DNA of 64,000 nt, from IMG/VR virus record IMGVR_UViG_3300025401_000648; one strand, given 5' to 3'. The stretch comes from a virus (taxonomy: Duplodnaviria; Caudoviricetes). The position numbers and the translations under genes are program-made. Positions 12,948 to 27,794 of this stretch are shown piece after piece; the first letter of the stretch is position 1, and each line of letters begins with the position of its first letter. The notes beneath the pieces were generated by a model. It did no database searches. It saw only the letters and a program-made list of their open reading frames with translations, and was not told the DNA's origin.

Positions 12948-12997
12948 GCGAGCCATAAATCGCATCATGGTATTTGAGAGCCGTAAATCTCAAGGAG
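12948..12997 (+). promoter_or_regulatory. Tandem hairpins with GCCRTAAA loops abutting the DNA polymerase SD (candidate translational operator)
   Basis: GCGA-GCCATAAA-TCGC (12948-12963) and TTGAGA-GCCGTAAA-TCTCAA (12974-12993), then GGAG. Confidence 0.55.
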
Positions 12998-13006
12998 AAA
13001 AATAAT

Positions 13007-15676
13007 ATGAGTTATGTTGATGCCATTTGGGATCGCGAAAAAGACATTGTCAAAGTCATTGAGCGTGATCCAAAACAGGGTAGACTCTATCAAGAGTACA
13101 ATGCCCGCTATCTATTTTATTATCCAGACCAACGAGGAAAATTCAAAAGCATCTTTGGAGAAAACTTATCCAAAGTAACTGCTCGTAGCTGGAAAGAATT
13201 CATTAAAGAACAAAAAATCCATTCTTCTCATAAACTATATGAGAGCGATATCAATCCTGTATTCCGTTGTTTAGAAGAAAACTATCTTGGCAAAGATGCT
13301 CCAAAATTAAATGTAGCATTTTTTGATATTGAGGTGGACTTTGATCCAGAACGTGGCTACGCAAGTCCAGACGATGCGTTTATGCCAATTACTGCGATTG
13401 CTGTCCACCTACAATGGATGGATACTCTAGTATGCCTTGCTGTTCCTCCAAAGACTTTAACCATGGAACAAGCACAAGATCAAGTTAAAGAATTTCCCAA
13501 CACTATACTGTTTGAAACAGAATACGAAATGTTGGATACATTCTTAAATCTAATTGAAGATGCTGATGTGCTAAGTGGATGGAACAGTGAAGGGTTTGAT
13601 ATTCCCTATACTGTTAATCGTGTTACAAAAGTTCTAAGTAAAGAAGATACCCGTAGATTTTGTCTTTGGGGAGCCATGCCAAAGAAACGTGAATTTGAAA
13701 AATATGGAAAAACTGCTGTTACCTATGACCTTGTTGGTCGTGTTCACCTTGATAGTCTCGAGTTGTACAGAAAATATACCTATGAAGAACGCCACACATA
13801 TCGACTGGATGCAATTGGAGAGATGGAAATAGGCGAAAGCAAGACTGTTTACGAAGGTACGTTGGACCAGTTATACAATAATGATTTCCGTAAATTTATT
13901 GAATATAATAGACAAGACTGTGCCTTGCTTGATAAGTTGGATAAAAAGTTAAAATTCATTGACCTTGCTAATACTGTTGCTCACGAAAATACTGTGTTAC
14001 TACAAACTACAATGGGTGCTGTGGCTGTTACAGAACAGGCTATTGTAAATGAAGCACATCACAGAGGTATGATGGTACCAAGTCGCCCCAAACGAGATGA
14101 TACCGTAAGTAATCAGGCGGCAGGTGCGTATGTTGCTTATCCAAAAAAAGGCATCCATGACTACATTGGATCAATGGATATTAACAGTTTGTACCCGTCT
14201 GTGATTCGTGCGCTGAACATGGGTCCAGAAACGATTGTGGGTCAGTTACGCCAAGATTATACTAAAGAAGAAATTGAAAACAAAATGGCCAAGAAAGAAA
14301 GTTTCGCTGGCGCATGGGAAGGTAAGTTTGGCAGTAATGAATATGAATTTGTTATGAACCGAGATCGAAGTCATGATATTATCATTGATTGGGAGAATGG
14401 CGAAACCACTATTATGAGTGGTGCTCAAATTTATGAACTTATCTTTGAAAGTAATAATCCATGGATGCTAAGTGCCAATGGTACTATCTTTACCTATGAA
14501 AAAGAAGGTATCATTCCTGGTTTACTAAAACGTTGGTATAGTGAACGTAAAGAAATGCAGGCCAAGCTCAAAGAAGCAATTAAAGCGGAGAATAAAATTG
14601 AAGAAGAATACTGGGACAAAAGACAACTGGTTAAAAAAATTAACCTCAATAGCCTATATGGTGCTATTCTTAACGCTGGTTGTAGGTTCTTTGATAATCG
14701 TATTGGACAATCCACAACTCTTTCCGGACGTGGTATCGCCCGCCATATGGCCGCAAAGATAAATGAAGTTATCACTGGAGAGTACAACCATATTGGTAAA
14801 AGCATTATCTATGGTGATACTGACTCTGCCTACTTTAGTGCTTATTCATCTTTAAAGAACGAAATTGCCAAAGGTGAAATTCCTTGGAACAAGGACACAG
14901 TGGTTCAACTATATGATACCATTGCTGAAGAAGTAAATTCAACATTCCCAGATTTCATGCTAGAAGCACATCACTGTCCTCGCAGCCGTGGCGATGTTAT
15001 CCGTGCTGGTCGTGAAATTGTTGCTATCAAAGGCCTGTTTATTACCAAGAAGCGTTATGCCGTACTGTATTATGACAAGGAAGGCAAACGCAGTGACGTA
15101 GATGGCAAGCCAGGTAAGATCAAGGCCATGGGCTTGGATTTGAAACGCAGTGACACTCCTGAATTTATGCAGAAGTTTTTGGAAGAAGTTCTTACCAAAG
15201 TACTCAATGGTAGTGAAGAAAAAGAAATTCTAGAGATGATCAGTGAATTCCGTACAGAATTTAAAGCCCGACCAGGTTGGGAGAAAGGAAGTCCAAAACG
15301 TGCCAACAACATTACAGAATATCAAGAAAAAGAGAAGAAATTTGGCAAGGCTAATATGCCTGGTCATGTTAGAGCAAGTATTAATTGGAATACGCTCAAA
15401 AGAATGAATGGTGACAAATACAGTCAGCAAATTGTTGATGGTATGAAAGTTATCGTTTGTAAACTAAAGGGTAACCCCTTGGGATATACATCAGTAGCAT
15501 ATCCTGTGGACGAACTACGGTTGCCTAAATGGTTTCAAGAACTTCCGTTTGATCATGAAGAAATGGAAGCTACCATTATTAACAATAAGATTGAAAACCT
15601 TATTGGCGTATTAGAATGGGACTTGAGCAGTACTACTGAGACTAATACGTTTGGCAACTTGTTTTCGTTTGATTAA
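13007..15676 (+). CDS. gp43: Family B DNA polymerase (T4 gp43-like)
   Basis: Exonuclease FFDIE, WNSEGFD, YNRQD; polymerase DINSLYPS, KINLNSLYG, YGDTDS, KKRY; start at ATG 13007 after AAGGAG. Confidence 0.97.
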   Translation: MSYVDAIWDREKDIVKVIERDPKQGRLYQEYNARYLFYYPDQRGKFKSIFGENLSKVTARSWKEFIKEQKIHSSHKLYESDINPVFRCLEENYLGKDAPKLNVAFFDIEVDFDPERGYASPDDAFMPITAIAVHLQWMDTLVCLAVPPKTLTMEQAQDQVKEFPNTILFETEYEMLDTFLNLIEDADVLSGWNSEGFDIPYTVNRVTKVLSKEDTRRFCLWGAMPKKREFEKYGKTAVTYDLVGRVHLDSLELYRKYTYEERHTYRLDAIGEMEIGESKTVYEGTLDQLYNNDFRKFIEYNRQDCALLDKLDKKLKFIDLANTVAHENTVLLQTTMGAVAVTEQAIVNEAHHRGMMVPSRPKRDDTVSNQAAGAYVAYPKKGIHDYIGSMDINSLYPSVIRALNMGPETIVGQLRQDYTKEEIENKMAKKESFAGAWEGKFGSNEYEFVMNRDRSHDIIIDWENGETTIMSGAQIYELIFESNNPWMLSANGTIFTYEKEGIIPGLLKRWYSERKEMQAKLKEAIKAENKIEEEYWDKRQLVKKINLNSLYGAILNAGCRFFDNRIGQSTTLSGRGIARHMAAKINEVITGEYNHIGKSIIYGDTDSAYFSAYSSLKNEIAKGEIPWNKDTVVQLYDTIAEEVNSTFPDFMLEAHHCPRSRGDVIRAGREIVAIKGLFITKKRYAVLYYDKEGKRSDVDGKPGKIKAMGLDLKRSDTPEFMQKFLEEVLTKVLNGSEEKEILEMISEFRTEFKARPGWEKGSPKRANNITEYQEKEKKFGKANMPGHVRASINWNTLKRMNGDKYSQQIVDGMKVIVCKLKGNPLGYTSVAYPVDELRLPKWFQELPFDHEEMEATIINNKIENLIGVLEWDLSSTTETNTFGNLFSFD

Positions 15677-16466: not shown

Positions 16467-16837
16467 TAAAGGGTATAAATCAGGGCGGGAGATATATTAG
16501 TGTTACCGGCGGAATGCCGGGCAGTAATTATATTAACAATTACTCTGGCGCACAAGGTATCGGTAACATGCGATTCAATACTTCTACACAAAATGTGGAA
16601 GTATGGGATGGCAATAATTGGATGACCTTACAAACATCTTATGCTACAGTTCAATTAGATAGTGAAGCAACAAGTCTACTAGATTGGGCTAAAGAAAAAC
16701 GTGATGAAGAATGGAAGATGCAGGAGTTGATTAAAACCAATCCTGCTGTTAAAATAGCGTATGACAATGTTTTGAAAGCACAAGAACAATTAAAGATAAC
16801 AACTATATTGAGTACAGATGAAAAAACCACCAGTTAA
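16463..16837 (+). CDS. Hypothetical protein
   Basis: 124-aa ATGA-coupled ORF. Confidence 0.7.
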   Translation: MIKGINQGGRYISVTGGMPGSNYINNYSGAQGIGNMRFNTSTQNVEVWDGNNWMTLQTSYATVQLDSEATSLLDWAKEKRDEEWKMQELIKTNPAVKIAYDNVLKAQEQLKITTILSTDEKTTS

Positions 16838-18356
16838 TTTGACACCATTACAAATGGATTATGCTGTATATTTGCCAGCCATTAGTAGTTTTTATGGCAC
16901 ATATATTGCTAAACAGAGATTAGAAGAATTTATTCCTAAGGATCGTATACCCACTGGGTTTGATCGAGGCATTGAAGGAATGAATTTCTTAAATGAAGAA
17001 GATGGGTACTTTACTTACAAATATGGTCTTTATTCAGCAGGTCACGCAACTCTAGACCTAAATAAGACTATGACAAAAGAAAGTATGATTCAACAACGTG
17101 ATAGAAATAAAACTCTAATACTTGGCGATTCAGGCGGATTCCAAATTGGTAAGGGCGTACTTAAATTTGATTGGTTAAATTTTGAAGGTCCTTCAGCTAC
17201 CAAGGTACGTCAAAGTATTTTAGAATGGCTAGAAGTAACTGCTGATTGGAGTATGATGTTGGACGTTCCTACGTGGGCGTGTGATCATAATCATACAGCC
17301 AAGACTGGACTAAAAACATTTGAAGATTGTTTGGATAAAACAAAATACAATAACAAATATTTCCTAGACAACCGCTTAGGTCAGACCAAGTTCCTAAACG
17401 TGCTACAAGGTGGCGACTGGGATCGTGCTGAACAATGGTATAATGGTGTTAAAGAATTTAGCGATCCTAAGATATGGGGCGACAAAGCCGCTGAAGGCTG
17501 GGCCATGGGCGGTGCTAATATGAGCATGATGGATGTTACTCTTAAACGTCTAATGACAATGAGAGACGACGGCATGCTAGTGGGTAAAGACTGGATGCAC
17601 TTTTTGGGTACAGCACAATTAGATTGGGCCTGCTACTTAACTTTGATTCAACGACAAATTAGGAAACATATCAATGAAAACTTCACCATCTCTTTTGATT
17701 GCGCCTCACCGTTTATCGCAACAGCACACGGACTTGTCTACACAAACCCACAGTTCTCGCCAAAACGGTGGAGTACTATTATGGAAAAAGCCACAGACAA
17801 CAAGGCACTCGCAACAAGCAAGACTCCTTTCCCCTGGGAAAGTGAAATTGGAAGCCGCTTGACAATGGGTGATATCTGCTGGTATCAGCCAGGCATGTTA
17901 AACAAGATTGGCAAAGAAGGCAAAACATCATGGGATAGTTTTAGCTATGCTCTTATGATGGCACATAATGTTAACAGTCACATTTCCAGTGTACAACGTG
18001 CTAATCATTTAGTAGATATCGAATGTACAAGATATCAGCCAAATTGGAAGTTATGGGGAATTGAAGGTAAGAAAGAAAAAGAATACAGTGACTGGGTTCC
18101 ACGTAGGATTTTATACTTTAGCCGTTTTATCAAAGAGCTGTTTGAAACAACATCAAAACAAGAAGCATTTGATATGATTGAAGAAGGTATTGGATTTTTA
18201 CGTAGCCTAGAAGGCACACGTAGCCAAGATGGTATGGCACGTAATACATTCTTTAATTTATTTGAAGAAGAAGCTAAAGATGAAAATGATTTAGACTTGT
18301 CTAATCCCGACGATGACGAATTACGTGCTTTAGAAGAAAGTGTTGACAGTGAATAA
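16818..18356 (+). CDS. tRNA-guanine-transglycosylase-fold protein, probably a DpdA-like deazapurine DNA transglycosylase
   Basis: DSGGFQ, MLDVPT, VLQGG, GWAMGG, HFLG, SFDCASP, MAHNV; the three TGT catalytic/binding Asp equivalents are present; QueE and QueD-like genes nearby. Confidence 0.8.
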   Translation: MKKPPVNLTPLQMDYAVYLPAISSFYGTYIAKQRLEEFIPKDRIPTGFDRGIEGMNFLNEEDGYFTYKYGLYSAGHATLDLNKTMTKESMIQQRDRNKTLILGDSGGFQIGKGVLKFDWLNFEGPSATKVRQSILEWLEVTADWSMMLDVPTWACDHNHTAKTGLKTFEDCLDKTKYNNKYFLDNRLGQTKFLNVLQGGDWDRAEQWYNGVKEFSDPKIWGDKAAEGWAMGGANMSMMDVTLKRLMTMRDDGMLVGKDWMHFLGTAQLDWACYLTLIQRQIRKHINENFTISFDCASPFIATAHGLVYTNPQFSPKRWSTIMEKATDNKALATSKTPFPWESEIGSRLTMGDICWYQPGMLNKIGKEGKTSWDSFSYALMMAHNVNSHISSVQRANHLVDIECTRYQPNWKLWGIEGKKEKEYSDWVPRRILYFSRFIKELFETTSKQEAFDMIEEGIGFLRSLEGTRSQDGMARNTFFNLFEEEAKDENDLDLSNPDDDELRALEESVDSE

Positions 18357-18825
18357 ATTTACAGATTTTCCAGAACAACCTAGAGTAATGCGTGACGCAG
18401 AGGGCGAAGCATATTTTAGTATTATGCTGGCCCAAATTGCAGATTTCAATCCTAACGAAATCATTGCTGTGGCACGTAGCGGATTTAGTTATGCTATGTG
18501 GGTAGCGCAAATGCTTAAATTACCATTAGGTGCTTATTGGGCAGAGCGAGGTGAACTGGTCACCGGCAGTGATCCAGAACGTATTGTATTTGTAGATGAC
18601 AATATTGTATCTGGTAGTACATATAAAGATACAAAACTTTTTATGGAACGGTATTATCCCAATACTGAATGGCGTTGGGCTGTATTATTTACTGACTGGC
18701 ATACTCCGAAAGAAATATGCGATGAAGTCATTCAAGGTGTAAAACTTCCTTACTTTGCTGAAGAGCCAATGTGGGGTAGCAAAAAAATTAGTCAAGATTA
18801 TGGCATAAGGTACAGAGATGAATAA
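18340..18825 (+). CDS. Type I phosphoribosyltransferase-like protein
   Basis: IIAVARSG and IVFVDDNIVSGSTY (PRPP-binding loop). Confidence 0.75.
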   Translation: MLTVNKFTDFPEQPRVMRDAEGEAYFSIMLAQIADFNPNEIIAVARSGFSYAMWVAQMLKLPLGAYWAERGELVTGSDPERIVFVDDNIVSGSTYKDTKLFMERYYPNTEWRWAVLFTDWHTPKEICDEVIQGVKLPYFAEEPMWGSKKISQDYGIRYRDE

Positions 18826-19234
18826 TATTAGAATCGCATTTGATATGGACGGGGTATTACTACCCGATTTTCATAAAATTCCTCAGTTAAATGATGATGA
18901 ATTTTTCGAGCATACATTATATGCTAGGCCCATGTTTTCGCCAGTTGGTGTTTTTGATGTGGTCACTGCCCGTACAGAAGATCGTCGGCCAGTTACACTA
19001 GAATGGCTCAAACAGTTATCCACTCCGCCACAAAATTTGTTTATGAAGCCTGTGAATAGTGATGAAACTCCAGCTGAATACAAATATCGTAAGTGTATTG
19101 AAGAAGGTTATAAAATTTTTGTAGAAAGCGAACCCAGTATTGTTTTAGAAATGCGTGAAATGGCATTGATTGATAACACAGACTTAATGGTTATTCATTT
19201 TTCTGGTTTCGTTTCAAGAGGATTTGAATTGTGA
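18818..19234 (+). CDS. Cap-less HAD-superfamily phosphatase
   Basis: IAFDMDGVL (DxD motif I), VVTAR (motif II), YK (motif III). Confidence 0.8.
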   Translation: MNNIRIAFDMDGVLLPDFHKIPQLNDDEFFEHTLYARPMFSPVGVFDVVTARTEDRRPVTLEWLKQLSTPPQNLFMKPVNSDETPAEYKYRKCIEEGYKIFVESEPSIVLEMREMALIDNTDLMVIHFSGFVSRGFEL

Positions 19235-20112
19235 AAAGTCTAATCGTAGGTATGGGGATTGGCAATCTCTACAAAGCAGTATTAACTAATTTAGGACACG
19301 AAGTTGTTACTGTGGATATCAATCCATCAGCAAATGCTGACTATCCCACAATTGGAGACGCTTGCCTTAAGCACAAACATTTTGATACCGCACACATTTG
19401 TACTCCAAATTATCTACATAATATTCATGCTAGGTCTGCGGCCAATTGTGCTAAAATTATATTTGTGGAAAAACCAGGTGTTGCTAATGCCAAAGATTGG
19501 TTGGAGTTAGTCAGCTATTTTCCTAAAACAAGATTCATGATGGTTAAAAATAACCAATGGCGAGATAATATTGAACGTATGCGTGAATTGATGATTGACT
19601 CAGATTCAATATCAATTGATTGGTTAAATCAAGATCGTGTGCCCAATCCTGGAACATGGTTTACCACAAAACACTTGGCATATGGCGGAGTTAGTAGAGA
19701 TTTAATGCCTCACTTGTTGAGCTTGTTTATGGCTTTAGACCCAGAATACATGACATCACGTGAATTAGAAAGATCGATTGACCGTAAATGGAAATTGTGT
19801 GATCTCACAAAGACAGATTATGGCAGAGTTAACGAACATGGCACATATGATGTCGATGACTACTTTAAATTAAATTTCATGTGTAATGATCGAGCTTGGA
19901 GTTTGACCGCAGACTGGCGTACTCTAAAAGAAGATCGTAGAGCTATTACATTTAATTTAAAAGATGGCGGTGCTGAAGTTATTGAATTAGGATTATGTCC
20001 AGAAGAAGCATACCAAGTCATGATCAAAGATGCTATTGATAATTTAGAAAATAATTTATTTTGGAATAACCAATTACTACAGGATTACTGGATTCACAGT
20101 AAGATAGAATGA
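19231..20112 (+). CDS. Gfo/Idh/MocA-family NAD(P) oxidoreductase
   Basis: LIVGMGIG Rossmann motif, ICTPNYLH, FVEKP. Confidence 0.85.
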   Translation: MKSLIVGMGIGNLYKAVLTNLGHEVVTVDINPSANADYPTIGDACLKHKHFDTAHICTPNYLHNIHARSAANCAKIIFVEKPGVANAKDWLELVSYFPKTRFMMVKNNQWRDNIERMRELMIDSDSISIDWLNQDRVPNPGTWFTTKHLAYGGVSRDLMPHLLSLFMALDPEYMTSRELERSIDRKWKLCDLTKTDYGRVNEHGTYDVDDYFKLNFMCNDRAWSLTADWRTLKEDRRAITFNLKDGGAEVIELGLCPEEAYQVMIKDAIDNLENNLFWNNQLLQDYWIHSKIE

Positions 20113-21002
20113 ACGTAAGACTACTACATACTACCGGAAACGGAATATTTGAAGAAACCATTTGGGAAAAGCCTGAACCTTCTGATAACGAAATTGAAGT
20201 ACGTGCTGTTATGACAGGTGTTTGCCGAAGCGACATCGACATGATGATGGGCAATTTTGGGCCACTACCATTACACATGCAGGGGCATGAAGGATTGGGC
20301 ATAGTAACCAAAGTTGGTAGTGATATCACTGATATTGCCATTGGAAATTTTGTTGCTACACGCGGTGAACCCGCTTATGCAGATTTTTATAATGTACGCA
20401 ACACTGAATACACATGGGTTCCTGAACTACACCCTCGCTATATTATTGAGCCAGTAGCCTGCGGTATCAATATTATAGATCAAGCATGGCAACAAATTAG
20501 AGAAAGATCTAATGGAAAAATACTAATCATAGGCAGTGGATTCCTTGCCTGGGTGGCGTTTAATAGATTAAAATCACAACGATCAAATGCCAGTGTTGAT
20601 GTATTAGGATCAAGTAATTTAGAATTATGGGGAGATCAACTGCTGTTAGGAACCAGTGAAAGTTATGATGTGGTCATTGACCTAACTGGAAAATATGCGT
20701 TAGGCTTAGACATTAAACTAAACAACAACGCAATAATTATAGACGGCGTTGGCAAAGCAATTAGTAGAGAGGAAGCACAGCAACAACTTTGGAAAGCCTG
20801 TACTACAATTCGTCCAAGTCCTCGAAATCCAAAATTTCATCAATGTATGAAAGAAGCAGTTTGGATGATTGAAAATTATCATTTAGCTATTGACAATTTC
20901 TGGACTAAAGCGTATAATAGAGATACAGAATGGCAACAAGCGTTTGCGGATGGTAAGGATCGTCCAAACGGTTATAGCCGAGGTTACATTGTATGGGATT
21001 GA
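20109..21002 (+). CDS. Zn-dependent medium-chain dehydrogenase
   Basis: TGVCRSD, GHEGLG, IEPVACG, IIGSG; lacks the four-Cys structural zinc lobe. Confidence 0.85.
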   Translation: MNVRLLHTTGNGIFEETIWEKPEPSDNEIEVRAVMTGVCRSDIDMMMGNFGPLPLHMQGHEGLGIVTKVGSDITDIAIGNFVATRGEPAYADFYNVRNTEYTWVPELHPRYIIEPVACGINIIDQAWQQIRERSNGKILIIGSGFLAWVAFNRLKSQRSNASVDVLGSSNLELWGDQLLLGTSESYDVVIDLTGKYALGLDIKLNNNAIIIDGVGKAISREEAQQQLWKACTTIRPSPRNPKFHQCMKEAVWMIENYHLAIDNFWTKAYNRDTEWQQAFADGKDRPNGYSRGYIVWD

Positions 21003-21532
21003 ATACTGAAGAACGACAAGGAGTCGTTTACTTTACAGGTTATGAAGTAGAACATACTATTTGTCATGGTATGTATACATTGTTTGTTGTAGGCACACCT
21101 CCTGTAGAAGATATCCTACGTATTGCCAACGACTCACAAGCAATGTTAGACGAGTCTAAACGTATCAAACATATCTACTTTGGTACTAGCCAAAGTTTTA
21201 ATCCTCAAGGTATTACATTTCAAGAATACCGGGCATGGGACGATGTCATTCTTCCATGTTTAAAAGCAGACTACTGGGTGACATTAGACTTTGATGTCAA
21301 ACACGCCGAAGGAGTGCTCGAATCTGGATATTCTGAATATCCTAGATTTGTTCCGATGATTAGTGTTAAGCTACCTTACATTAATCAATTTAACTATAAC
21401 GCCACACTTAAACTGGACGACCTCACATGGGGTAAGACTAATCCGGGTGTGTGGACTCATCAACTACATGATCTAATGAGTAAAGACAAATATACTTACT
21501 GGGATCAATATACACAGGACACAGAACTATGA
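20993..21532 (+). CDS. Hypothetical protein; possible QueE-like partial barrel lacking Fe-S cysteines
   Basis: 179 aa; ordered motif resemblance to the 25242 QueE (see findings). Confidence 0.5.
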   Translation: MGLNTEERQGVVYFTGYEVEHTICHGMYTLFVVGTPPVEDILRIANDSQAMLDESKRIKHIYFGTSQSFNPQGITFQEYRAWDDVILPCLKADYWVTLDFDVKHAEGVLESGYSEYPRFVPMISVKLPYINQFNYNATLKLDDLTWGKTNPGVWTHQLHDLMSKDKYTYWDQYTQDTEL

Positions 21533-21894
21533 CAACAAATACATATATCAAAATTCGCACAGAATTTGAAGGTTTTCATTTTTACCCCGACGCAGGTAAA
21601 ATTGATCCACGCATTGAATTTTTAGAACACGAACATCGCCATATGTTCAAGGTCGAAGTTAAAATCTCTGTCACGCATTTGGATCGTGAACTAGAGTTCT
21701 TCCTTGTCAAATGGGCACTACAAGATTTTATCCGAGCAGGCGACCAAAATCATAAGTCCTGCGAAATGATAGCAACAGATATTTTGCAGGACCATTTAAT
21801 TCCTCTTTACGGACCAAATCGATCTTATGAGATCGTAGTATCCGAAGATGGGGAATCAGATGGTATTGTGGAATATACTCCGTCTTTTCATTAA
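21529..21894 (+). CDS. T-fold QueD/PTPS-like protein
   Basis: FEGFH, EHEHRH (HxH metal site), SCEMIA; the canonical QueD Cys is absent. Confidence 0.65.
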   Translation: MTTNTYIKIRTEFEGFHFYPDAGKIDPRIEFLEHEHRHMFKVEVKISVTHLDRELEFFLVKWALQDFIRAGDQNHKSCEMIATDILQDHLIPLYGPNRSYEIVVSEDGESDGIVEYTPSFH

Positions 21895-21920
21895 CTCCTA
21901 TTTTAACAGGAAAATTTAAA

Positions 21921-22184
21921 ATGGCATTGCCAAACTATATTACAAAAACTCTTCAACTGAAGCCCGAAGTCAACAAGATCTTTAATGATCTAGATCGTTG
22001 GTTGGATCACTGTAGGATTAACCTACTGCCCTATAACCCTGCGGACTTGTATCGTAGTCCAGAGTATAGGAAGTTCCAACAGGAGCAAGAGTACTTAGAA
22101 CGTAAAGCACGTCGTGAACGTGAAGGACGTCCAGAGCCAGTTAAACAACGCGAATTCCGCGGCAACTTCAAGCCACGGTATTGA
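21921..22184 (+). CDS. Hypothetical protein
   Basis: 87-aa ORF with SD AGGA. Confidence 0.65.
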   Translation: MALPNYITKTLQLKPEVNKIFNDLDRWLDHCRINLLPYNPADLYRSPEYRKFQQEQEYLERKARREREGRPEPVKQREFRGNFKPRY

Positions 22185-22185
22185 T

Positions 22186-23253
22186 ATGGCAAATATCTTT
22201 CTAATCGATTTAGAAAGTGTAGAAACTAGGTACACGGGGCAATGGAAGTCCCATGTACCTAATATCTTACGAAAGGCAGGACACGATGTTAGAGTTATTT
22301 CCGGACCTGGAGATATTCCTCCAGCAACTACGCCAGGAGCTTTTCTTAACTTTGGTGGCACCAATATATACAAGGCTAATCAAGTTGAACAGATTAGTCG
22401 TTTGTTTTGCTCCGGAGCAGTCAAGCCTGGCGATCATTTTTTGTTCACAGATGCTTGGCATCCCGGAATCATAAATTTAAAATACATGAGTGAACTACTG
22501 GGAATCCCAGTAACTACACACGGCTTATGGCATGCTGGCAGTTATGATCCTCAAGATTTTCTTGGACGTCTTGTAGGAGATAAGCCATGGGTAAGACATG
22601 CTGAGAAAAGTTTTTATGAAGCATTTGATCATAACTACTTTGCCACACAGTTCCATATTGATATGTTCTGTGAAAATTTGTTAGATCGTAAATCTGATAT
22701 CACCATCTATTTTGCCAAAGATAAAATTGTTCGCACAGGTTGGCCCATGGAGTATATGGATGAATTATTGGGCGGAGGAGGCCCGTATGCCAAAGACAAC
22801 CTAATTGTATTCCCGCACCGTATTGCTCCAGAGAAGCAGGTAGAAATTTTTAGAGATTTGGCTAATCATTTACCAGAATATGAATTTGTTGTTTGCCAGG
22901 ATCAATCACTGACTAAGAATGAATACCATACCTTGTTGAAACGTGCTAAGATTGTGTTCAGTGCTAACCTACAGGAAACACTAGGTATCAGTTGCTACGA
23001 AGGTGCTATGGTAGATACTATTCCCATGGTGCCTGATAGATTAAGCTACACAGAAATGTATTATGATACTTTCAAATATCCAAGCAAATGGACTGAAAGT
23101 TTTGAAGCATATCAATCATATCGTCCGCAACTTTGCTATAAATTGGTCAATTACTTAAAAAATTACGAAAAGTTTTTACCACAACTACACAAACAAACTC
23201 AAGACTTAACAGAAAGATTTTTCTCATGTCAAAACTTGCTGACAAAATTTTAA
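22186..23253 (+). CDS. GT-B fold glycosyltransferase (GT4-like)
   Basis: Start moved to ATG 22186; FPHRIAPEK and ETLGISCYEGA donor-binding signatures. Confidence 0.8.
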   Translation: MANIFLIDLESVETRYTGQWKSHVPNILRKAGHDVRVISGPGDIPPATTPGAFLNFGGTNIYKANQVEQISRLFCSGAVKPGDHFLFTDAWHPGIINLKYMSELLGIPVTTHGLWHAGSYDPQDFLGRLVGDKPWVRHAEKSFYEAFDHNYFATQFHIDMFCENLLDRKSDITIYFAKDKIVRTGWPMEYMDELLGGGGPYAKDNLIVFPHRIAPEKQVEIFRDLANHLPEYEFVVCQDQSLTKNEYHTLLKRAKIVFSANLQETLGISCYEGAMVDTIPMVPDRLSYTEMYYDTFKYPSKWTESFEAYQSYRPQLCYKLVNYLKNYEKFLPQLHKQTQDLTERFFSCQNLLTKF

Positions 23254-23705
23254 ATTTGCTCGACCAAATGGGTCGTAAACGTGTTGTACTAGATCGAGAA
23301 GGAAATGAACCTTATCTTATACGCTATTATGTCTTTCTCAAAGACCGAAAGTTATTTCCATTTAATGTGTTTTTACACAAGTTTCTTAAGTCAGACCCCG
23401 ATGATGTGCATGATCATCCTTGGCCTTACGCTACACTAATTTTACGAGGTGGATATTACGAATGGATTCCAAAATTTAATGACAAAAAAGAAATGATTGG
23501 TGAAATTCGTAAATGGAGAGGCCCTGGTCATTTTCGTATATCTCGACCATCAAGCTATCATCGTATTGAATTACAAGAAGGAGTTACTCCTTGGACTCTG
23601 TTTATGCCTGGACCACAACAGCGTGAATGGGGATTTTTAGTTAATAATCAGTGGATACATAATGAACAATATTTGAAGGAAAGAAATGAACAAGCTCATA
23701 CTTAA
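23226..23705 (+). CDS. Cupin-fold protein
   Basis: HDHPW...GGYYE...HRIEL metal-binding cupin pattern. Confidence 0.65.
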   Translation: MSKLADKILNLLDQMGRKRVVLDREGNEPYLIRYYVFLKDRKLFPFNVFLHKFLKSDPDDVHDHPWPYATLILRGGYYEWIPKFNDKKEMIGEIRKWRGPGHFRISRPSSYHRIELQEGVTPWTLFMPGPQQREWGFLVNNQWIHNEQYLKERNEQAHT

Positions 23706-24186
23706 TGATCAGGAGTACAAAGGCCTTGTTGGCAAAATATGTCGGGATATCGCCGTTAGCGGTTGGCGCCCGGATTATATTGTAGGCATCGGTCGTGGTG
23801 GGTTGTTGCCTGCTGTCATGATCAGTCAATATTTTGGTATCAAAATGTGTAGTTTAGATATCAGTCTGCGTGATGGTGGCGATACTGTTAGTAATTTTAG
23901 TATGAGTGAAGATGCGTTTAGCGGCAAAAAAATTCTAATCGTCGACGACATCAACGATACAGGAGCTACAATTAACTGGCTAATGAATGACTGGCGTAGC
24001 TCATGCCAACCCGAGCATCAGGTATGGGACGAAGGTGTGTGGAATGACAATGTTAAATTTGCTGTGGTTGTGGATAACTGGAGTAGCGCATGTCAAGTCA
24101 CTATGGATTTCACAGGGATGGAAGTAAACAAATCAGAACAAGACGTATGGATTGAATTTCCTTACGAGGAATGGTGGACCAAATGA
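23686..24186 (+). CDS. Purine (Gpt/Hpt-like) phosphoribosyltransferase
   Basis: IVGIGRGGLLPA and ILIVDDINDTGAT. Confidence 0.85.
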   Translation: MNKLILNDQEYKGLVGKICRDIAVSGWRPDYIVGIGRGGLLPAVMISQYFGIKMCSLDISLRDGGDTVSNFSMSEDAFSGKKILIVDDINDTGATINWLMNDWRSSCQPEHQVWDEGVWNDNVKFAVVVDNWSSACQVTMDFTGMEVNKSEQDVWIEFPYEEWWTK

Positions 24187-24593
24187 AAAAGACTGTACAG
24201 GATAAAATCTTTGATGGGCCGGATCATATCGATTGGGCTGATACCCCATGGACTGACTTAGAACGTGATGATTTTCATGTGGCTATCTACAGAGACAAAT
24301 ACCCCTGTACACCCGGACATTTATTGTTTGTGCCTAAATACAATACCATAGGAGTACTAAATGATGCGTTTGAAGATGCTGTTAGATACGGCAAAAAAAT
24401 GGTGGAAACCGGAGAATGGGACGGTTACAATATTGGACTTAATATGGGCCAGGCTGCTGGACAAACTATCAACTGGCCTCATGTCCATCTTATACCACGT
24501 AGGCGAGGTGACGTCGACGATCCGACGGGCGGCGTCAGAAATACAATACCAGGCAAAGGCAATTATAAATCGCCGGACTTTAGAGCAGATTAA
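24183..24593 (+). CDS. HIT-family nucleotide hydrolase
   Basis: YPCTPGHLLFVPK, GYNIGLNMGQAAGQTINWPHVHLIPR; ATGA-coupled start 24183. Confidence 0.9.
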   Translation: MKKTVQDKIFDGPDHIDWADTPWTDLERDDFHVAIYRDKYPCTPGHLLFVPKYNTIGVLNDAFEDAVRYGKKMVETGEWDGYNIGLNMGQAAGQTINWPHVHLIPRRRGDVDDPTGGVRNTIPGKGNYKSPDFRAD

Positions 24594-24636
24594 TCCTATT
24601 GAGTATGAATGGAGCTCTAATAACCATACAGGATTT

Positions 24637-25029
24637 ATGGCGCAAACTATTGGACCAGCCTATGGATATTATAATACAGCAGTTGGTAGTCAAGCAGGTC
24701 ATAGTTATCAACCTAATAATGTACAGTTTAATTCCAGTGGGCCTAAGACTGTGTTAACCATTACCGGAGACGGTGATGTTATTTGGACAGGAAAACCCAG
24801 TGAGGCCGCAGACATTCTAGTACGTAGTTTTCAAATGTCTGTAGAAGATGCCAAGGGTGTTACTAAAGCCGCTCGTCGCAGATATTATGCTCTAGCCTGT
24901 CGCAATATTTTGAGCAAAGCAGAAGATATGGAATATGAAGAGTTCCTTGCTTTCCTAAATAGAGAAGTGTATAATAGAGAACGTAAGGTCATTTTAGATT
25001 CATTAAAAGGAGAAGACAATGCTACATGA
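24637..25029 (+). CDS. Hypothetical protein
   Basis: Start moved to ATG 24637 (SD AGGA); the upstream extension overlaps the HIT gene. Confidence 0.6.
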   Translation: MAQTIGPAYGYYNTAVGSQAGHSYQPNNVQFNSSGPKTVLTITGDGDVIWTGKPSEAADILVRSFQMSVEDAKGVTKAARRRYYALACRNILSKAEDMEYEEFLAFLNREVYNRERKVILDSLKGEDNAT

Positions 25030-25249
25030 TTCAATTAAAAATACATATAAAGAAATGGTCATTAAAGAAGATTCAGGATTTCGACTGGTGTTGAAGAAAC
25101 ATGAAGTGTTGAGTCCTAAAGGTCTTTTTAGTGTTAATTTAGAACAACAAAATTTACGAGATGGTGAAATCTCAGATGTTTCAACATATAACTTCTTTAT
25201 GACCAAAGAAGAAATTCAAGCACTAGCACATGGATTAACACATGAGTAA
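25019..25249 (+). CDS. Hypothetical protein
   Basis: 76-aa ORF with SD AAGGAG. Confidence 0.65.
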   Translation: MLHDSIKNTYKEMVIKEDSGFRLVLKKHEVLSPKGLFSVNLEQQNLRDGEISDVSTYNFFMTKEEIQALAHGLTHE

Positions 25250-26093
25250 GATTAAAATAGCAGAACTATTTTATAGTATACAGGGAGAAGGACGTTATAT
25301 GGGCGTACCAAGTATCTTCTTAAGGACTTTCGGCTGCAATTTCCGCTGTGCAGGATTTGGTATGCCTAAAGGGCAATTGAGCGCAGAAGCAGAAGACATT
25401 GCCACCGTAGTGCATTTATATAACAAATATGAAGATTTGCCGCTAGTATCAACTGGTTGTGATAGTTATGCTAGTTGGCATCCTGATTTTAAAAACCTAA
25501 GTCCTATGTTGACTACGGATGCTATTGTTGAACGCATCATGGAGATATTGCCCTTCAATGAGTGGCGCAATGAACATCTTGTTATCACAGGTGGTGAACC
25601 GCTATTAGGTTGGCAACGTGCTTATCCTGACCTGTTGGATCATCCTAAAATGTCTAAACTAAAAGAAATTACATTTGAAACAAATGGTACTCAAAAGTTA
25701 ACACAAGATTTTAAAAATTATCTTGGAGTATGGAATGGCTTACCTAGGCAAAAACGAGAAATTACATTCAGTGTAAGTGCTAAGTTGCCAGCAAGTGGTG
25801 AAAAGTGGGAAGAAGCTATTCTTCCAGAAGTTGTTTGTGAATATGAAGAAGTAGGCACAGCATATCTTAAATTTGTGGTAGCCACAGAAGAGGACGTTAA
25901 AGATGCAGAACAAGCAATTGAACAATATAGAGCGGCTGGCTTTAAAGGTCACATATATCTTATGCCTGTTGGCGGTGTTGAGTCTGTTTACAATCTCAAT
26001 GCTAAATCCGTTGCCCTTGCCGCAATGAAACGCGGCCTACGTTATAGTGATCGACTACAAGTGCCCTTGTTCAAGAACGAGTGGGGCACTTGA
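25242..26093 (+). CDS. queE: 7-carboxy-7-deazaguanine synthase (radical SAM)
   Basis: ELFYSIQGEG, FLRTFGCNFRC...GCDS, ITGGEP, FETNGT, SDRLQ; Cys motif is CX3CX36C. Confidence 0.85.
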   Translation: MSKIKIAELFYSIQGEGRYMGVPSIFLRTFGCNFRCAGFGMPKGQLSAEAEDIATVVHLYNKYEDLPLVSTGCDSYASWHPDFKNLSPMLTTDAIVERIMEILPFNEWRNEHLVITGGEPLLGWQRAYPDLLDHPKMSKLKEITFETNGTQKLTQDFKNYLGVWNGLPRQKREITFSVSAKLPASGEKWEEAILPEVVCEYEEVGTAYLKFVVATEEDVKDAEQAIEQYRAAGFKGHIYLMPVGGVESVYNLNAKSVALAAMKRGLRYSDRLQVPLFKNEWGT

Positions 26094-26380
26094 TGATGGG
26101 AGTAGGATACTACGGAAAAAAGGCTATGTCACATGATCGCCGGGGTGATGAAGTACAACAATCACCACCATCTGAAGACTGGGGATTACGCAGAGCACAA
26201 TATTGGAAACTTAAACTATGTTGGCTTCCAAAAAAGTGTTTTCTAACAAATAAGCCTCTTTGGGGTAAACTTGCGTATCACGGTGAAAACTGGATTACTG
26301 GTCCAGGTGATCCTGTTGTTAATCACTACTGGATAGAAAAAAATGAATTCTTAATGTGGAATTTGAGAGGAAGAAGATGA
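26093..26380 (+). CDS. Hypothetical protein
   Basis: TGATG-coupled to queE; W-rich. Confidence 0.6.
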   Translation: MMGVGYYGKKAMSHDRRGDEVQQSPPSEDWGLRRAQYWKLKLCWLPKKCFLTNKPLWGKLAYHGENWITGPGDPVVNHYWIEKNEFLMWNLRGRR

Positions 26381-26802
26381 ACAATTTATGGAAAAAGTTG
26401 ACAGGCATTGACAAGATTGAAAAAGAACGTGCTGATGCTGAAGCAGTACGGGAAGCCGCAAAACAGGCCGCGGCTGAAGCATTAGAAGCCGCTCGCATTG
26501 CCAAATTAACGCCAAAAGAAATTGCCACGGAGAAAAAAGAACCATGGGTCGCTGTATTAGACACGCATGTCAATATGGAAAATCTTAGAAACGGTTTCTT
26601 TGAACTTGACTGGAATGAGTACTTTGTAGTACAATTAAGAAGCGCTGGTTACGTAGGTGAAACAGACGAAGCAGTGGTTGATTCCTGGTTTACTGAATTA
26701 TGTCGTAATTTAGGATCAGAAGAAGGTGTTGATATGAGCCGTAGAGGATCAGGTTATATCAATATAAACAATTTAGGTGGCGGAAGATCGGAAATTTCTT
26801 AA
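26377..26802 (+). CDS. Hypothetical protein
   Basis: ATGA-coupled; Ala/Glu-rich helix then FFELDWNEYF. Confidence 0.7.
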   Translation: MNNLWKKLTGIDKIEKERADAEAVREAAKQAAAEALEAARIAKLTPKEIATEKKEPWVAVLDTHVNMENLRNGFFELDWNEYFVVQLRSAGYVGETDEAVVDSWFTELCRNLGSEEGVDMSRRGSGYININNLGGGRSEIS

Positions 26803-27794
26803 TGACAAAAACATATATTCTTGTAGATACAGCTAACACATTCTTCCGTGCTAGACACGTGATTAGGGGTGACCTTAACGATAAAATTGGTATGAGTATT
26901 CATACTGTGTTAGGCAGTGTACGCAAAGCATGGCGTGATTTCAAAGGCGATCATGTGGTGTTCTGCCTTGAGGGTCGAAGCTGGCGCAAAGACTATTATG
27001 CTCCCTACAAACGCCAACGTGCTGAAGGACGTGCAGCGATGAGTCCCAGCGAGCAAGAAGAAGAAAGAGTATTTTGGGAAACCTTTGATAATTTCAAAGA
27101 CTTTATTATCAACAAGACCAACACCACCGTGCTTCAACATCCACAACTTGAAGCAGATGATTTAATTGCTGGTTTTATTCAAGCCCACCCCAATGACCAT
27201 CATGTGATTATTTCAACAGATGGTGATTTTGCACAATTGATTGCGCCTAACGTAAAACAATATAATGGGGTAATGGAAATTACGACTACACATGAAGGAT
27301 ACTTTGATGCCAAGGGTAAACGTGTCGTTGATAAGAAAACTAAACAAGACAAGCCCGCGCCGGATCCGTCCTGGTTACTATTTGAGAAGTGTATGCGTGG
27401 CGACACCTCCGACAATGTCTTTAGTGCTTATCCAGGAGTTCGTACTAAAGGGACAAAGAATAAAGTTGGTCTCCAGGAGGCCTATGCCGACAGAAACACA
27501 CGGGGATTCAATTGGAACAACATGATGTTGCAACGCTGGGTTGACCATAATGGTGAAGAACATCGTGTGTTGGATGACTATAATCGAAATGTCACACTGT
27601 GCGACTTGACAGCACAACCTGAAAATATTAAAGTTTTAATTAAAGAAACAATCACAACGGCAACTACCGCAGATAAAGATATTCCGCAGGTTGGTGTTAG
27701 ATTGTTGAAATTCTGTGCTGAATATGACATGCAGAAAATCAGTGAGCAGGTTCAGAGTTACGCAGAACCATTAAACGCAAGGTATGTAAAATAA
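26802..27794 (+). CDS. rnh: T4-type RNase H / 5'-3' flap exonuclease
   Basis: LVDTAN, EADDLI, STDGDFAQL, GDTSDNV. Confidence 0.9.
   Translation: MTKTYILVDTANTFFRARHVIRGDLNDKIGMSIHTVLGSVRKAWRDFKGDHVVFCLEGRSWRKDYYAPYKRQRAEGRAAMSPSEQEEERVFWETFDNFKDFIINKTNTTVLQHPQLEADDLIAGFIQAHPNDHHVIISTDGDFAQLIAPNVKQYNGVMEITTTHEGYFDAKGKRVVDKKTKQDKPAPDPSWLLFEKCMRGDTSDNVFSAYPGVRTKGTKNKVGLQEAYADRNTRGFNWNNMMLQRWVDHNGEEHRVLDDYNRNVTLCDLTAQPENIKVLIKETITTATTADKDIPQVGVRLLKFCAEYDMQKISEQVQSYAEPLNARYVK

Follow-up and report, generated by a model that had tools for sequence, protein, structure and literature searches.

A 64-kb stretch of DNA from the IMG/VR record IMGVR_UViG_3300025401_000648 (here, the window) contains, on its + strand at positions 16818 to 26093, a cluster of genes related to the synthesis and insertion of 7-deazaguanines, interspersed with genes for a glycosyltransferase (GT), two phosphoribosyltransferases (PRTases) and several redox enzymes. 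The source is a large uncultured freshwater phage, a T4-related jumbo phage, and the cluster lies inside its replication module, in one co-oriented gene run between a B-family DNA polymerase and an RNase H/5'-3' exonuclease. An earlier note on this DNA, made from its letters alone, had listed the open reading frames (ORFs) between polymerase/clamp and RNase H and had proposed that they direct a new, sugar-bearing DNA modification. All of these ORFs are present on the + strand, and their stops and starts mostly overlap, as the note had said (by 4 to 28 nt at 12 of the 16 gene junctions between 15732 and 26093). The observation is thus confirmed, and its interpretation is partly supported.

Family searches give matches above the cut-off for a GFO/IDH/MocA oxidoreductase (GFO), the N-terminal domain of a Zn-dependent alcohol dehydrogenase (Zn-ADH), the second PRTase (PRTase-2) and a HIT-family protein, and weaker matches for the first PRTase (PRTase-1), a HAD-like protein, the GT and a radical S-adenosylmethionine (SAM) protein of the QueE type. 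The matches above the cut-off agree with the names that the earlier note gave to the GFO, the Zn dehydrogenase, the second PRTase and the HIT protein. The proteins of 512, 179 and 121 aa matched no named family in the standard searches, and megablast of the window against cultured phages returned nothing. For comparison, we used 80 IMG/VR loci and several metagenome contigs, and all ORFs between the transglycosylase and RNase H genes were clustered in 27 complete loci, including that of the Pseudomonas jumbo phage PA5oct (Wroclawvirus). The nearest record, G001, starts within the QueE gene and is therefore uninformative on the cluster.

Transglycosylase, DpdL-type protein and QueE

The first gene of the cluster encodes a 512-aa protein whose predicted structure places it in the tRNA-guanine transglycosylase (TGT) superfamily, with all three active-site Asp residues kept. 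The assignment is made by fold, because sequence searches came back empty: neither the single sequence nor a profile of 56 family members matched an entry in Pfam, NCBIfam, PHROG or the PDB, and the TGT family of Pfam is matched by just 1 of the 56 members (E 0.0045). The AlphaFold2 model is of high quality (predicted local distance difference test [pLDDT] 91, predicted TM score 0.91), and its helical extension covers residues 374 to 463. In a Foldseek search of the PDB, the top 50 matches are all tRNA-guanine transglycosylases (for Zymomonas mobilis TGT, E 4e-8, probability 1.0), and VIA aligns the model to Thermotoga maritima TGT (2ash) with a Z score of 18.6 and a root mean square deviation of 4.4 Å over 301 residues; archaeal and murine TGTs reach Z 17.6 to 17.7. 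Alignment to Escherichia coli Tgt by hhalign (89.8%, E 2e-6) pairs LGDSGGFQ with LTDSGGFQ, MLDVPT with IFDECT, and SFDC with MFDC, so that D104, D149 and D294 align with the Asp of DSGGFQ, the substrate-recognizing Asp and the nucleophile Asp of FDC, respectively. Across the 56 sequences, S73, G75, D104, S105, G107, P151, H261, G264 and D294 are invariant and D149 is nearly so. With this fold and these residues, the TGT/DpdA-like identity claimed for the gene stands.

TGT and DpdA clusters are among the language-model neighbors of the protein (at 0.94 and 0.89), and its viral structural neighbors include phage proteins from the Vibrio phage nt-1 and from phiST, a Cellulophaga phage. By hhalign, the window family matches the 424-aa protein of Acidovorax phage ACP17 (KY979132) at 96.6% and, over part of its length, the phiST enzyme DpdA3 at 73%. 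QueF, QueC and FolE genes adjoin a homologue in Vibrio phage 2.275.O. The family is large: a word search gave at least about 8,000 matches, and exhaustive searching sorted it into at least 889 clusters at 50% identity. A distant relative (P0238; 417 aa, 31% identical) lies next to genes for a phage integrase, FliG and a MarR regulator on the bacterial-looking contig L102, and the family may therefore extend to prophages or islands in bacterial genomes.

The disordered transglycosylase tail contains a peptide, NTFFNLF, that equals the polymerase C-terminal peptide NTFGNLF in six of seven residues. The polymerase and transglycosylase peptides co-vary over four lineages: NTFGNLFSFD and NTFFNLFEEE in the window; HFDSLFGW (followed by the stop) and NSFNSLFDVD in PA5oct; SLDDLFE and TLDELFE in ACP17, both at the extreme C terminus; and INSLFDMSVFD (followed by the stop) and NNFSDLFEET in L100, a 42%-identical relative. 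The predicted partner is the 244-aa protein encoded directly after the polymerase. A complex of three copies of this protein with tail residues 455 to 512 was predicted together with three controls; it scored 0.66, against 0.16 for the best control, and the score mark applied is one that 58 of 80 solved complexes, and 2 of 110 mismatched pairs, had attained. Between runs, at least 60% of the contacts were common, with a pLDDT of at least 46 for the partner and about 90 for the trimer. The confident interface joins tail residues 472 to 485 to residues 38 to 42, 123 to 130, 196 to 199, 222 to 224 and 239 to 244 of the 244-aa protein, which we take to be the pocket beside the interdomain loop and C terminus that binds peptides in solved clamp complexes. 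Because such complexes have already been solved, the favorable score may come in part from likeness to them. The prediction supports docking of the tail on the 244-aa protein rather than demonstrating it. That protein has no sequence match in the PDB and falls in a PHROG family without a named function; we call it clamp-like from its position and the predicted complex, not from its sequence. The transglycosylase is probably aimed at DNA, at the replication fork, a target to which the clamp-docking tail and the restriction data on PA5oct (see below) point indirectly.

The 121-aa protein had been called QueD-like, an identity that we reject. The catalytic Cys of the QueD motif CxxxHGH is absent, the hhalign probability against five canonical phage PTPS proteins is 0.4%, and canonical QueD is encoded elsewhere in the genomes of relatives. 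The protein instead has the sequence LEHEHRHMF (family consensus, LGxPHRHIF; H36 and H38 are invariant), which fits the DpdL signature LxxxHRHxF, and by tblastn it matches DpdL of phiST (CGPG_00067; NC_020842, 46862 to 47185; 32% identity, E 2e-9), DpdL of ACP17 (42%, E 2e-12) and a protein of Synechococcus phage BUCT-ZZ01 (63%). A T-fold is hinted at by a neighboring Atlas cluster (score, 0.96) in which 10% of the members carry the PTPS domain PF01242; the family profile has no match in the PDB. Judged by its sequence, the gene is of the DpdL type. DpdL is a QueD paralogue in which CxxxHGH has become LxxxHRHxF, and it is the proposed decarboxylase of 7-carboxy-7-deazaguanine (CDG) to 7-deazaguanine (PMC10516641). 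Since the DpdL family was named for phiST, whose DNA contains plain 2'-deoxy-7-deazaguanine (dDG), the base chemistry of the locus would be of a known kind. The window DpdL belongs to a divergent subtype; its identity is 81 to 85% with the proteins of L007, L009, L029 and L046 and just 36 to 42% with the DpdL-like proteins of most relatives, in which polymerase and DpdA-like genes show 75 to 89% identity to their window counterparts. This pattern suggests that the gene was swapped in horizontally.

The last gene of the cluster encodes a divergent QueE. Five NCBIfam QueE models match the 283-aa protein, all below their cut-offs (down to E 8e-17; best, 61.6 bits versus 260 for TIGR03963), and all PDB matches of the family profile are QueE chains (6nhl at E 2e-10, as well as 4njg and 5tgs). 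The sequence ELFYSIQGEG corresponds to the N-terminal substrate motif E-x-F-x-S-x-Q-G-E-G. Residues C32, C36 and C73 are invariant, in a C-x3-C-x36-C spacing that is neither CX3CX2C nor CX14CX2C (TIGR04508). The third Cys (in GCDS) follows an insert of about 35 residues (25335 to 25460, residues 32 to 73); if all three Cys residues ligate the cluster, this would be an unusual radical SAM loop.

No homologue of FolE, QueD, QueC, QueF or Gat was detected in the window by tblastn (E ≤ 1), in agreement with the earlier note's reading for FolE, QueC and QueF. In many relatives the cluster itself contains FolE, directly behind the GT gene, canonical, Cys-containing QueD is encoded elsewhere in the genomes of relatives, and the near-complete relatives G002 and G003 (98% and 93% complete) have FolE, canonical PTPS and QueE-like genes and no convincing QueC. 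The absence of FolE and QueD from the window is thus a lineage or window effect. Taken together, the evidence indicates that the locus very probably directs a deazaguanine modification of DNA, as had been proposed, and lacks QueC and QueF.

Glycosyltransferase, partner protein and accessory genes

A conserved core emerges from the 27 complete loci. The DpdA-like, DpdL-like, GT, QueE-like and 148-aa proteins are encoded in all of them, and the 179-aa protein in 26. Less regular are the cupin (20 of 27), the 87-aa protein (18), the purine PRTase (12, including PA5oct) and FolE (11). The GFO and Zn-ADH genes, confined to the closest relatives and PA5oct, occur together between DpdA and RNase H in three complete loci (the window, L005 and L030) and in four partial ones, and PRTase-1 with HAD was seen only in the window and in two of its closest relatives, L005 and L007. 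The dehydrogenase pair, PRTase-1, HAD and the cupin are therefore not part of the conserved core.

The GT is a putative GT-B enzyme with the motif QETLGISCYEG, in which both Glu residues of EX7E are invariant in 20 sequences, including that of PA5oct; its true start is at 22186. The window protein scores below the Pfam cut-offs (16.2 bits versus 26.4 for Glycos_transf_1 and 14.8 versus 28.5 for Glyco_transf_4). Members of its family show weak matches to Glycos_transf_1, Glyco_transf_4 and Glyco_transf_61, with five matching Glycos_transf_1 (best, E 0.0011), and the family profile has no match in the PDB; the homologues of PAC2 and Phosso are annotated as glycosyltransferases in GenBank. Among cultured phages, homologues are found in Phosso (50% identity), the PA5oct group (42%) and ACP17 (35%), as well as in Xanthomonas X1/BUDD and Burkholderia BCSR5, and all of these phages also carry a DpdL homologue. 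The two genes adjoin in PA5oct, in ACP17 and in Phosso, where the DpdA-like gene is nevertheless about 170 kb distant; in X1/BUDD and BCSR5, less than 3 kb separates them. The GT is genuinely linked to the deazaguanine locus.

Genes for sugar metabolism vary beside the GT. A GHMP kinase and a sugar-1-phosphate nucleotidyltransferase are its neighbors in L100, an NAD-dependent epimerase/dehydratase-like gene (EST35_0320) lies beside it inside the PA5oct cluster, and in the window the slot that holds other sugar-nucleotide genes in other lineages is taken by GFO and Zn-ADH with PRTase-1 and HAD. Such variation is expected if the GT uses an activated sugar that differs between lineages. Near the C terminus of the GT (23190 to 23253), a PIP-box-like motif, KQxxDLTxxFFS, is kept within the close environmental clade. 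DLTxxFFS was considered as a second clamp peptide and dropped, as it is absent from the PA5oct, ACP17 and L100 homologues.

The other constant partner, the 179-aa protein, was described earlier as QueE-like. Its resemblance to QueE is one of shape and serves as a lead only: it has no sequence relation to QueE (hhalign versus the QueE-like family, 0.15%) and lacks the Fe-S cysteines. The model (pLDDT 75) has its best PDB match at Z 6.4, which is in the noise range, with QueE chains at Z 5.9 to 6.3, and Atlas QueE clusters give TM scores of 0.55 to 0.56. Foldseek finds no match in the PDB at E ≤ 0.001 and one unnamed relative in the AFDB clusters, and hhalign against phiST CGPG_00066 gives 0.5%. 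Homologues of the 179-aa gene lie next to DpdA in ACP17 and next to GFO-ADH in PA5oct, where GFO, ADH and the 179-aa gene form a separate block 26 kb away.

Among the accessory products, the window GFO and Zn-ADH are 33% and 39% identical to EST35_0362 and EST35_0363 of PA5oct, respectively; Zn-ADH is absent from G002 and G003. Two PA5oct genes upstream of GFO, suspected to encode a PRTase and a HAD protein, gave no Pfam or BLAST match. The cupin-like protein, with its invariant His residues (Table 1), is a candidate oxygenase, conceivably a hydroxylase; its profile has no match in the PDB. PRTase-2 is closest in the PDB to purine, hypoxanthine-guanine and xanthine-guanine PRTases (e.g., 1vdm, E 1e-8). 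HIT homologues are found in many related loci; the ORF filter used in the clustering dropped the copy in the window. The start of the first of the two small ORFs, at about 24637, was set from the HIT stop codon.

Side observations concern the surroundings of the core. The central part of the 148-aa protein matches phrog_13349, "virion structural protein" (E 1e-16). Between the DpdA-like and RNase H genes, some relatives encode further proteins: an IMP dehydrogenase (IMPDH)/GMP-reductase-family protein in six loci (E 3e-69), a subtilase in three, a HhH-GPD DNA glycosylase-like protein, MazG, and 2-oxoglutarate-Fe(II) oxygenases. Examples of such cargo proteins are those of L012, L013 and L029 (about 339 to 368 aa), L039 (675 aa) and L071 (155 aa). 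The PA5oct polymerase (L003, 5605 to 10831) is annotated in two pieces with a putative Hef-like homing endonuclease between them, and that of the window is a single ORF.

Table 1. Genes and features of the window from the DNA polymerase to RNase H
Feature	Coordinates	Strand	Remarks
B-family DNA polymerase	12974–15676	+	Homologues have DNA_pol_B_exo1 and DNA_pol_B; ends in NTFGNLFSFD
Sliding-clamp-like protein, 244 aa	15732–16466	+	Directly after polymerase; predicted docking site for transglycosylase tail
DpdA-like guanine transglycosylase, 512 aa	16818–18356	+	Predicted TGT-fold TIM barrel, helical C-terminal extension, disordered acidic tail
Clamp-docking-like peptide NTFFNLF, residues 476–482	18243–18263	+	In disordered transglycosylase tail
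PRTase-1, type I phosphoribosyltransferase-like	18340–18825	+	Pribosyltran, E 6e-5, below cut-off; phosphoribosyl pyrophosphate (PRPP) loop VFVDDNIVSGST
Small HAD-like phosphatase	18818–19234	+	phrog_415, E 1e-6; DMDGV motif
GFO/IDH/MocA NAD(P) oxidoreductase	19231–20112	+	PF01408, 28.7 bits (cut-off, 24); EKP motif
Zn-dependent MDR-type dehydrogenase (Zn-ADH)	20109–21002	+	ADH_N, E 2e-10, above cut-off
179-aa alpha/beta protein, core partner	20993–21532	+	QueE-like shape; no Fe-S cysteines
DpdL-type protein, putative T-fold, 121 aa	21529–21894	+	LEHEHRHMF fits LxxxHRHxF; homologous to phiST DpdL
Small conserved protein, 87 aa	21921–22184	+	In 18 of 27 complete loci, always between DpdL-like gene and GT
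Putative GT-B (GT4-like) glycosyltransferase	22186–23253	+	EX7E motif; weak GT-B Pfam matches; core partner
Cupin-like protein	23226–23705	+	phrog_4786 "cysteine dioxygenase", E 2e-37; invariant H62, H64, H112
PRTase-2, purine (6-oxopurine) PRTase	23686–24186	+	Pribosyltran, E 4e-13
HIT-family nucleotide hydrolase or transferase	24171–24593	+	PF01230, E 3e-9
Two small ORFs	~24637–25029 and 25019–25249	+	No family match; patchy homologues in relatives
Divergent QueE (CDG synthase, radical SAM), 283 aa	25242–26093	+	phrog_2076 "QueE-like", E 2e-52
148-aa protein	26356–26802	+	Conserved in all 27 complete loci; lies after QueE, at downstream boundary
RNase H/5'-3' exonuclease	26802–27794	+	5_3_exonuc_N, E 8e-20; downstream boundary, outside pathway

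Proposed pathway and alternatives

From the folds, motifs, homologies and linkage described above, we infer the chemical steps, the DNA target and the sugar of the following pathway. FolE and QueD, supplied from elsewhere in the phage genome or by the host, would turn GTP into 6-carboxy-tetrahydropterin (CPH4), from which the divergent QueE would make CDG. The DpdL-type protein would then process CDG to 7-deazaguanine or a related base, by decarboxylation as proposed in the literature. Held at the fork by its clamp-docking tail, the DpdA-like enzyme would exchange guanine in nascent DNA for the deaza base, and the purine PRTase may return the released guanine to the GMP/GTP pool. The fixed core partners, GT-B and the 179-aa protein, would most likely modify the base further, the added group probably being a sugar. 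PRTase-1, HAD, GFO and Zn-ADH would form a lineage-specific unit that probably makes or alters the added group, since they occupy the slot of sugar-nucleotide genes in other lineages; speculatively, the PRTase would add phosphoribose, HAD would remove the phosphate, and GFO and ADH would then oxidize and reduce the sugar. The earlier note had the dehydrogenases, HAD and cupin build the sugar, which is one possibility among several.

We consider it reasonably likely that the locus is a DpdL-type 7-deazaguanine DNA-modification system within the replication module, with GT and 179-aa partners that tailor the base, probably with a sugar. Whether the base in DNA indeed carries a sugar or a sugar-derived group is close to an even call, slightly on the doubtful side; judged from the sequences, the sugar is a plausible and testable prediction.

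Several findings weigh against this reading. (i) The window transglycosylase fails all TGT and DpdA sequence models (Pfam PF01702 and PF23859), and its zinc site, CxCxxC...H, is lost, with no Cys invariant or nearly so in the 56-sequence alignment. (ii) FolE and QueD are not found within the window. (iii) The decarboxylase activity of DpdL is just a proposal, and heterologous expression, in which dpdL and dpdA of ACP17 were coexpressed alone, yielded no dDG (PMC10516641). (iv) 7-Deazaguanine offers no obvious hydroxyl as a sugar acceptor, and this is where the reading is weakest; conceivably, the GT and the 179-aa protein come into play ahead of insertion, or DpdL has an activity other than decarboxylation in phages that have the GT. 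(v) The cupin, with its 20 of 27 loci, has no homologue that we found in the PA5oct or ACP17 clusters, and in PA5oct the GFO-ADH pair lies 26 kb from the DpdA cluster. (vi) The interval from DpdA to RNase H also gathers unrelated cargo in relatives; as it is a cargo hot spot, position alone is weak evidence for rare accessory genes. (vii) phiST has DpdL, no detectable GT homologue and plain dDG, so that the core can work without a sugar.

Some of these findings favor a plain DpdL-type system that makes unglycosylated dDG or its 7-carboxy counterpart (dCDG), the GT and sugar/redox genes being cargo that serves a virion protein, the host envelope or another DNA base. phiST makes its dDG with FolE, QueD, QueE, DpdL and DpdA3; genes as unrelated as those for the subtilase and the HhH-GPD glycosylase enter the same interval; GFO-ADH is unlinked from DpdA in PA5oct; and PRTase-1 and HAD are shared with two relatives only. 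Such a system would leave unexplained why none of the 27 complete loci lacks the GT, why it stays next to DpdL even in Phosso, and why independent lineages set different sugar-activating genes beside it. The failure of ACP17 dpdL and dpdA alone to give dDG is, moreover, compatible with missing partners (PMC10516641). We regard this explanation as unlikely, albeit the most serious of the alternatives.

Less weight still falls on a nucleotide-level pathway resembling those of toyocamycin and tubercidin, in which a PRTase would join a deazapurine to PRPP, HAD, HIT and the oxidoreductases would follow, and the product would be incorporated by the polymerase or remain a free metabolite. In Streptomyces, such pathways employ a PRTase, a GMP reductase and a HAD phosphatase acting on deazapurine bases, and the locus does contain two PRTases, a HAD phosphatase and a HIT protein, with the IMPDH/GMP-reductase-family protein and MazG in the same interval of relatives. 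We nevertheless think this quite improbable. The most conserved gene is that of the transglycosylase, with its clamp-docking tail and all three catalytic Asp residues; PRTase-1 and HAD are infrequent accessory proteins; and PRTase-2 has its closest resemblance to guanine-salvage enzymes, as would suit reuse of the guanine freed by base exchange. In addition, DpdA is encoded by every phage known to carry a deazaguanine base, a fact that has been interpreted to mean that insertion follows replication (PMC10516641).

That the enzyme acts on phage or host tRNA, in a queuosine- or archaeosine-type module, is very improbable: it shares its fold with the tRNA enzymes, which are its best structural matches, but its zinc subdomain is lost, its gene lies within the replication module, its tail mimics and co-varies with the polymerase clamp peptide (with predicted docking well above the best control), PA5oct DNA itself is resistant at G-containing sites (PMC12191111), and in the loci read we noticed no QueA, QueG or QueF, of which only QueF was searched for, and only within the window.

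To return to the DpdL-type system with sugar tailoring, its widest form is that many mostly uncultured jumbo phages, together with PA5oct and ACP17, replace guanine by a sugar-bearing 7-deazaguanine that QueE, DpdL, the 179-aa protein and GT-B produce and a clamp-riding transglycosylase inserts, with lineage-specific cassettes varying the group. We put this forward tentatively, as rather less than an even prospect. If true, it would mark the first case of a glycosylated purine in DNA as well as of a base-exchange enzyme tethered to the replisome; the clamp-docking tail would explain how base replacement could become complete, with the enzyme working at the fork. A deazapurine with a sugar attached would constitute a new class of base in DNA, with bearing on restriction evasion, nucleases that sense modified DNA, sequencing artefacts and enzymology. 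Our analysis adds the evidence for the clamp-docking tail, brings out the PRTase-HAD-GFO-ADH unit and the 179-aa protein as a core partner, and gives a measure of how large the family is; in the literature, we found no report of a glycosylated deazaguanine in DNA, of GT-DpdL linkage or of a clamp-docking DpdA.

Comparison with known systems

Glycosylation of a noncanonical phage base has a precedent in T4, whose alpha- and beta-glucosyltransferases act on 5-hydroxymethylcytosine; there, a phage GT-B adds sugar to the base after replication and restriction is evaded, an analogy that we propose for the window. The T4 base, however, is a pyrimidine that arises at the nucleotide level and has a hydroxyl acceptor, whereas the base of the window would be a purine analogue inserted by exchange, and no sequence relation was found between the T4 enzymes and the window GT. 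A second parallel is eukaryotic tRNA, in which mannosyl- and galactosyl-queuosine arise when a glycosyltransferase adds the sugar to a 7-deazaguanine derivative after insertion by TGT. The sugar acceptor of queuosine is a cyclopentenediol, on tRNA, and the group is built by QueA, QueG and QueF. The known 7-deazaguanines of phage DNA carry small substituents only, and sugars in DNA are known on pyrimidines only.

Among the closest known systems is that of phiST, which comprises FolE, QueD, QueE, a MazG-like protein, DpdL and DpdA3 (Cui, Hutinet et al., NAR 2023, PMC10516641) and in which all G is replaced by dDG (PMC10516641). phiST and the window have in common QueE, the LxxxHRHxF paralogue, a TGT-superfamily enzyme, the lack of QueC and a cluster next to the DNA polymerase. 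FolE, QueD and MazG of phiST have no counterpart in this window. The window transglycosylase has 512 aa, in contrast to 259 aa in phiST, and adds the helical extension and the clamp-docking tail; beyond phiST, the window further has GT-B, the 179-aa partner, the cupin, two PRTases, HIT, GFO and Zn-ADH.

In PA5oct (genes EST35_0316 to EST35_0322), polymerase, clamp-like protein, DpdA-like enzyme, GT, DpdL-like protein, purine PRTase, QueE-like protein and RNase H are encoded in the order of the window, with identities of 41% for the DpdA-like protein, 42% for GT and 29% for the DpdL-like protein; no cupin, PRTase-1 or HAD homologue was found in this phage. PA5oct DNA is resistant to cleavage at restriction sites that contain G, and it is a target of a nuclease whose restricting activity, in the study concerned, was confined to phages with modified G (PMC12191111). 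The modified G was reported without a chemical structure, the study having used no liquid chromatography-mass spectrometry on PA5oct DNA (PMC12191111).

ACP17 has the gene order QueD, FolE, 179-aa-like protein (132 aa), DpdA (424 aa), GT (342 aa), DpdL and QueE. Unlike the window, it keeps FolE and QueD in the cluster, where we found no homologue of the cupin, the PRTases, HIT, GFO or ADH, and a literature report on its virion DNA was likewise not found. ACP17 and the window share the same five-gene core (179-aa homologue, DpdA, GT, DpdL and QueE). Because PA5oct and ACP17 are both cultured and have the same core, the prediction of a sugar on the base can be checked directly by mass spectrometry in these two phages.

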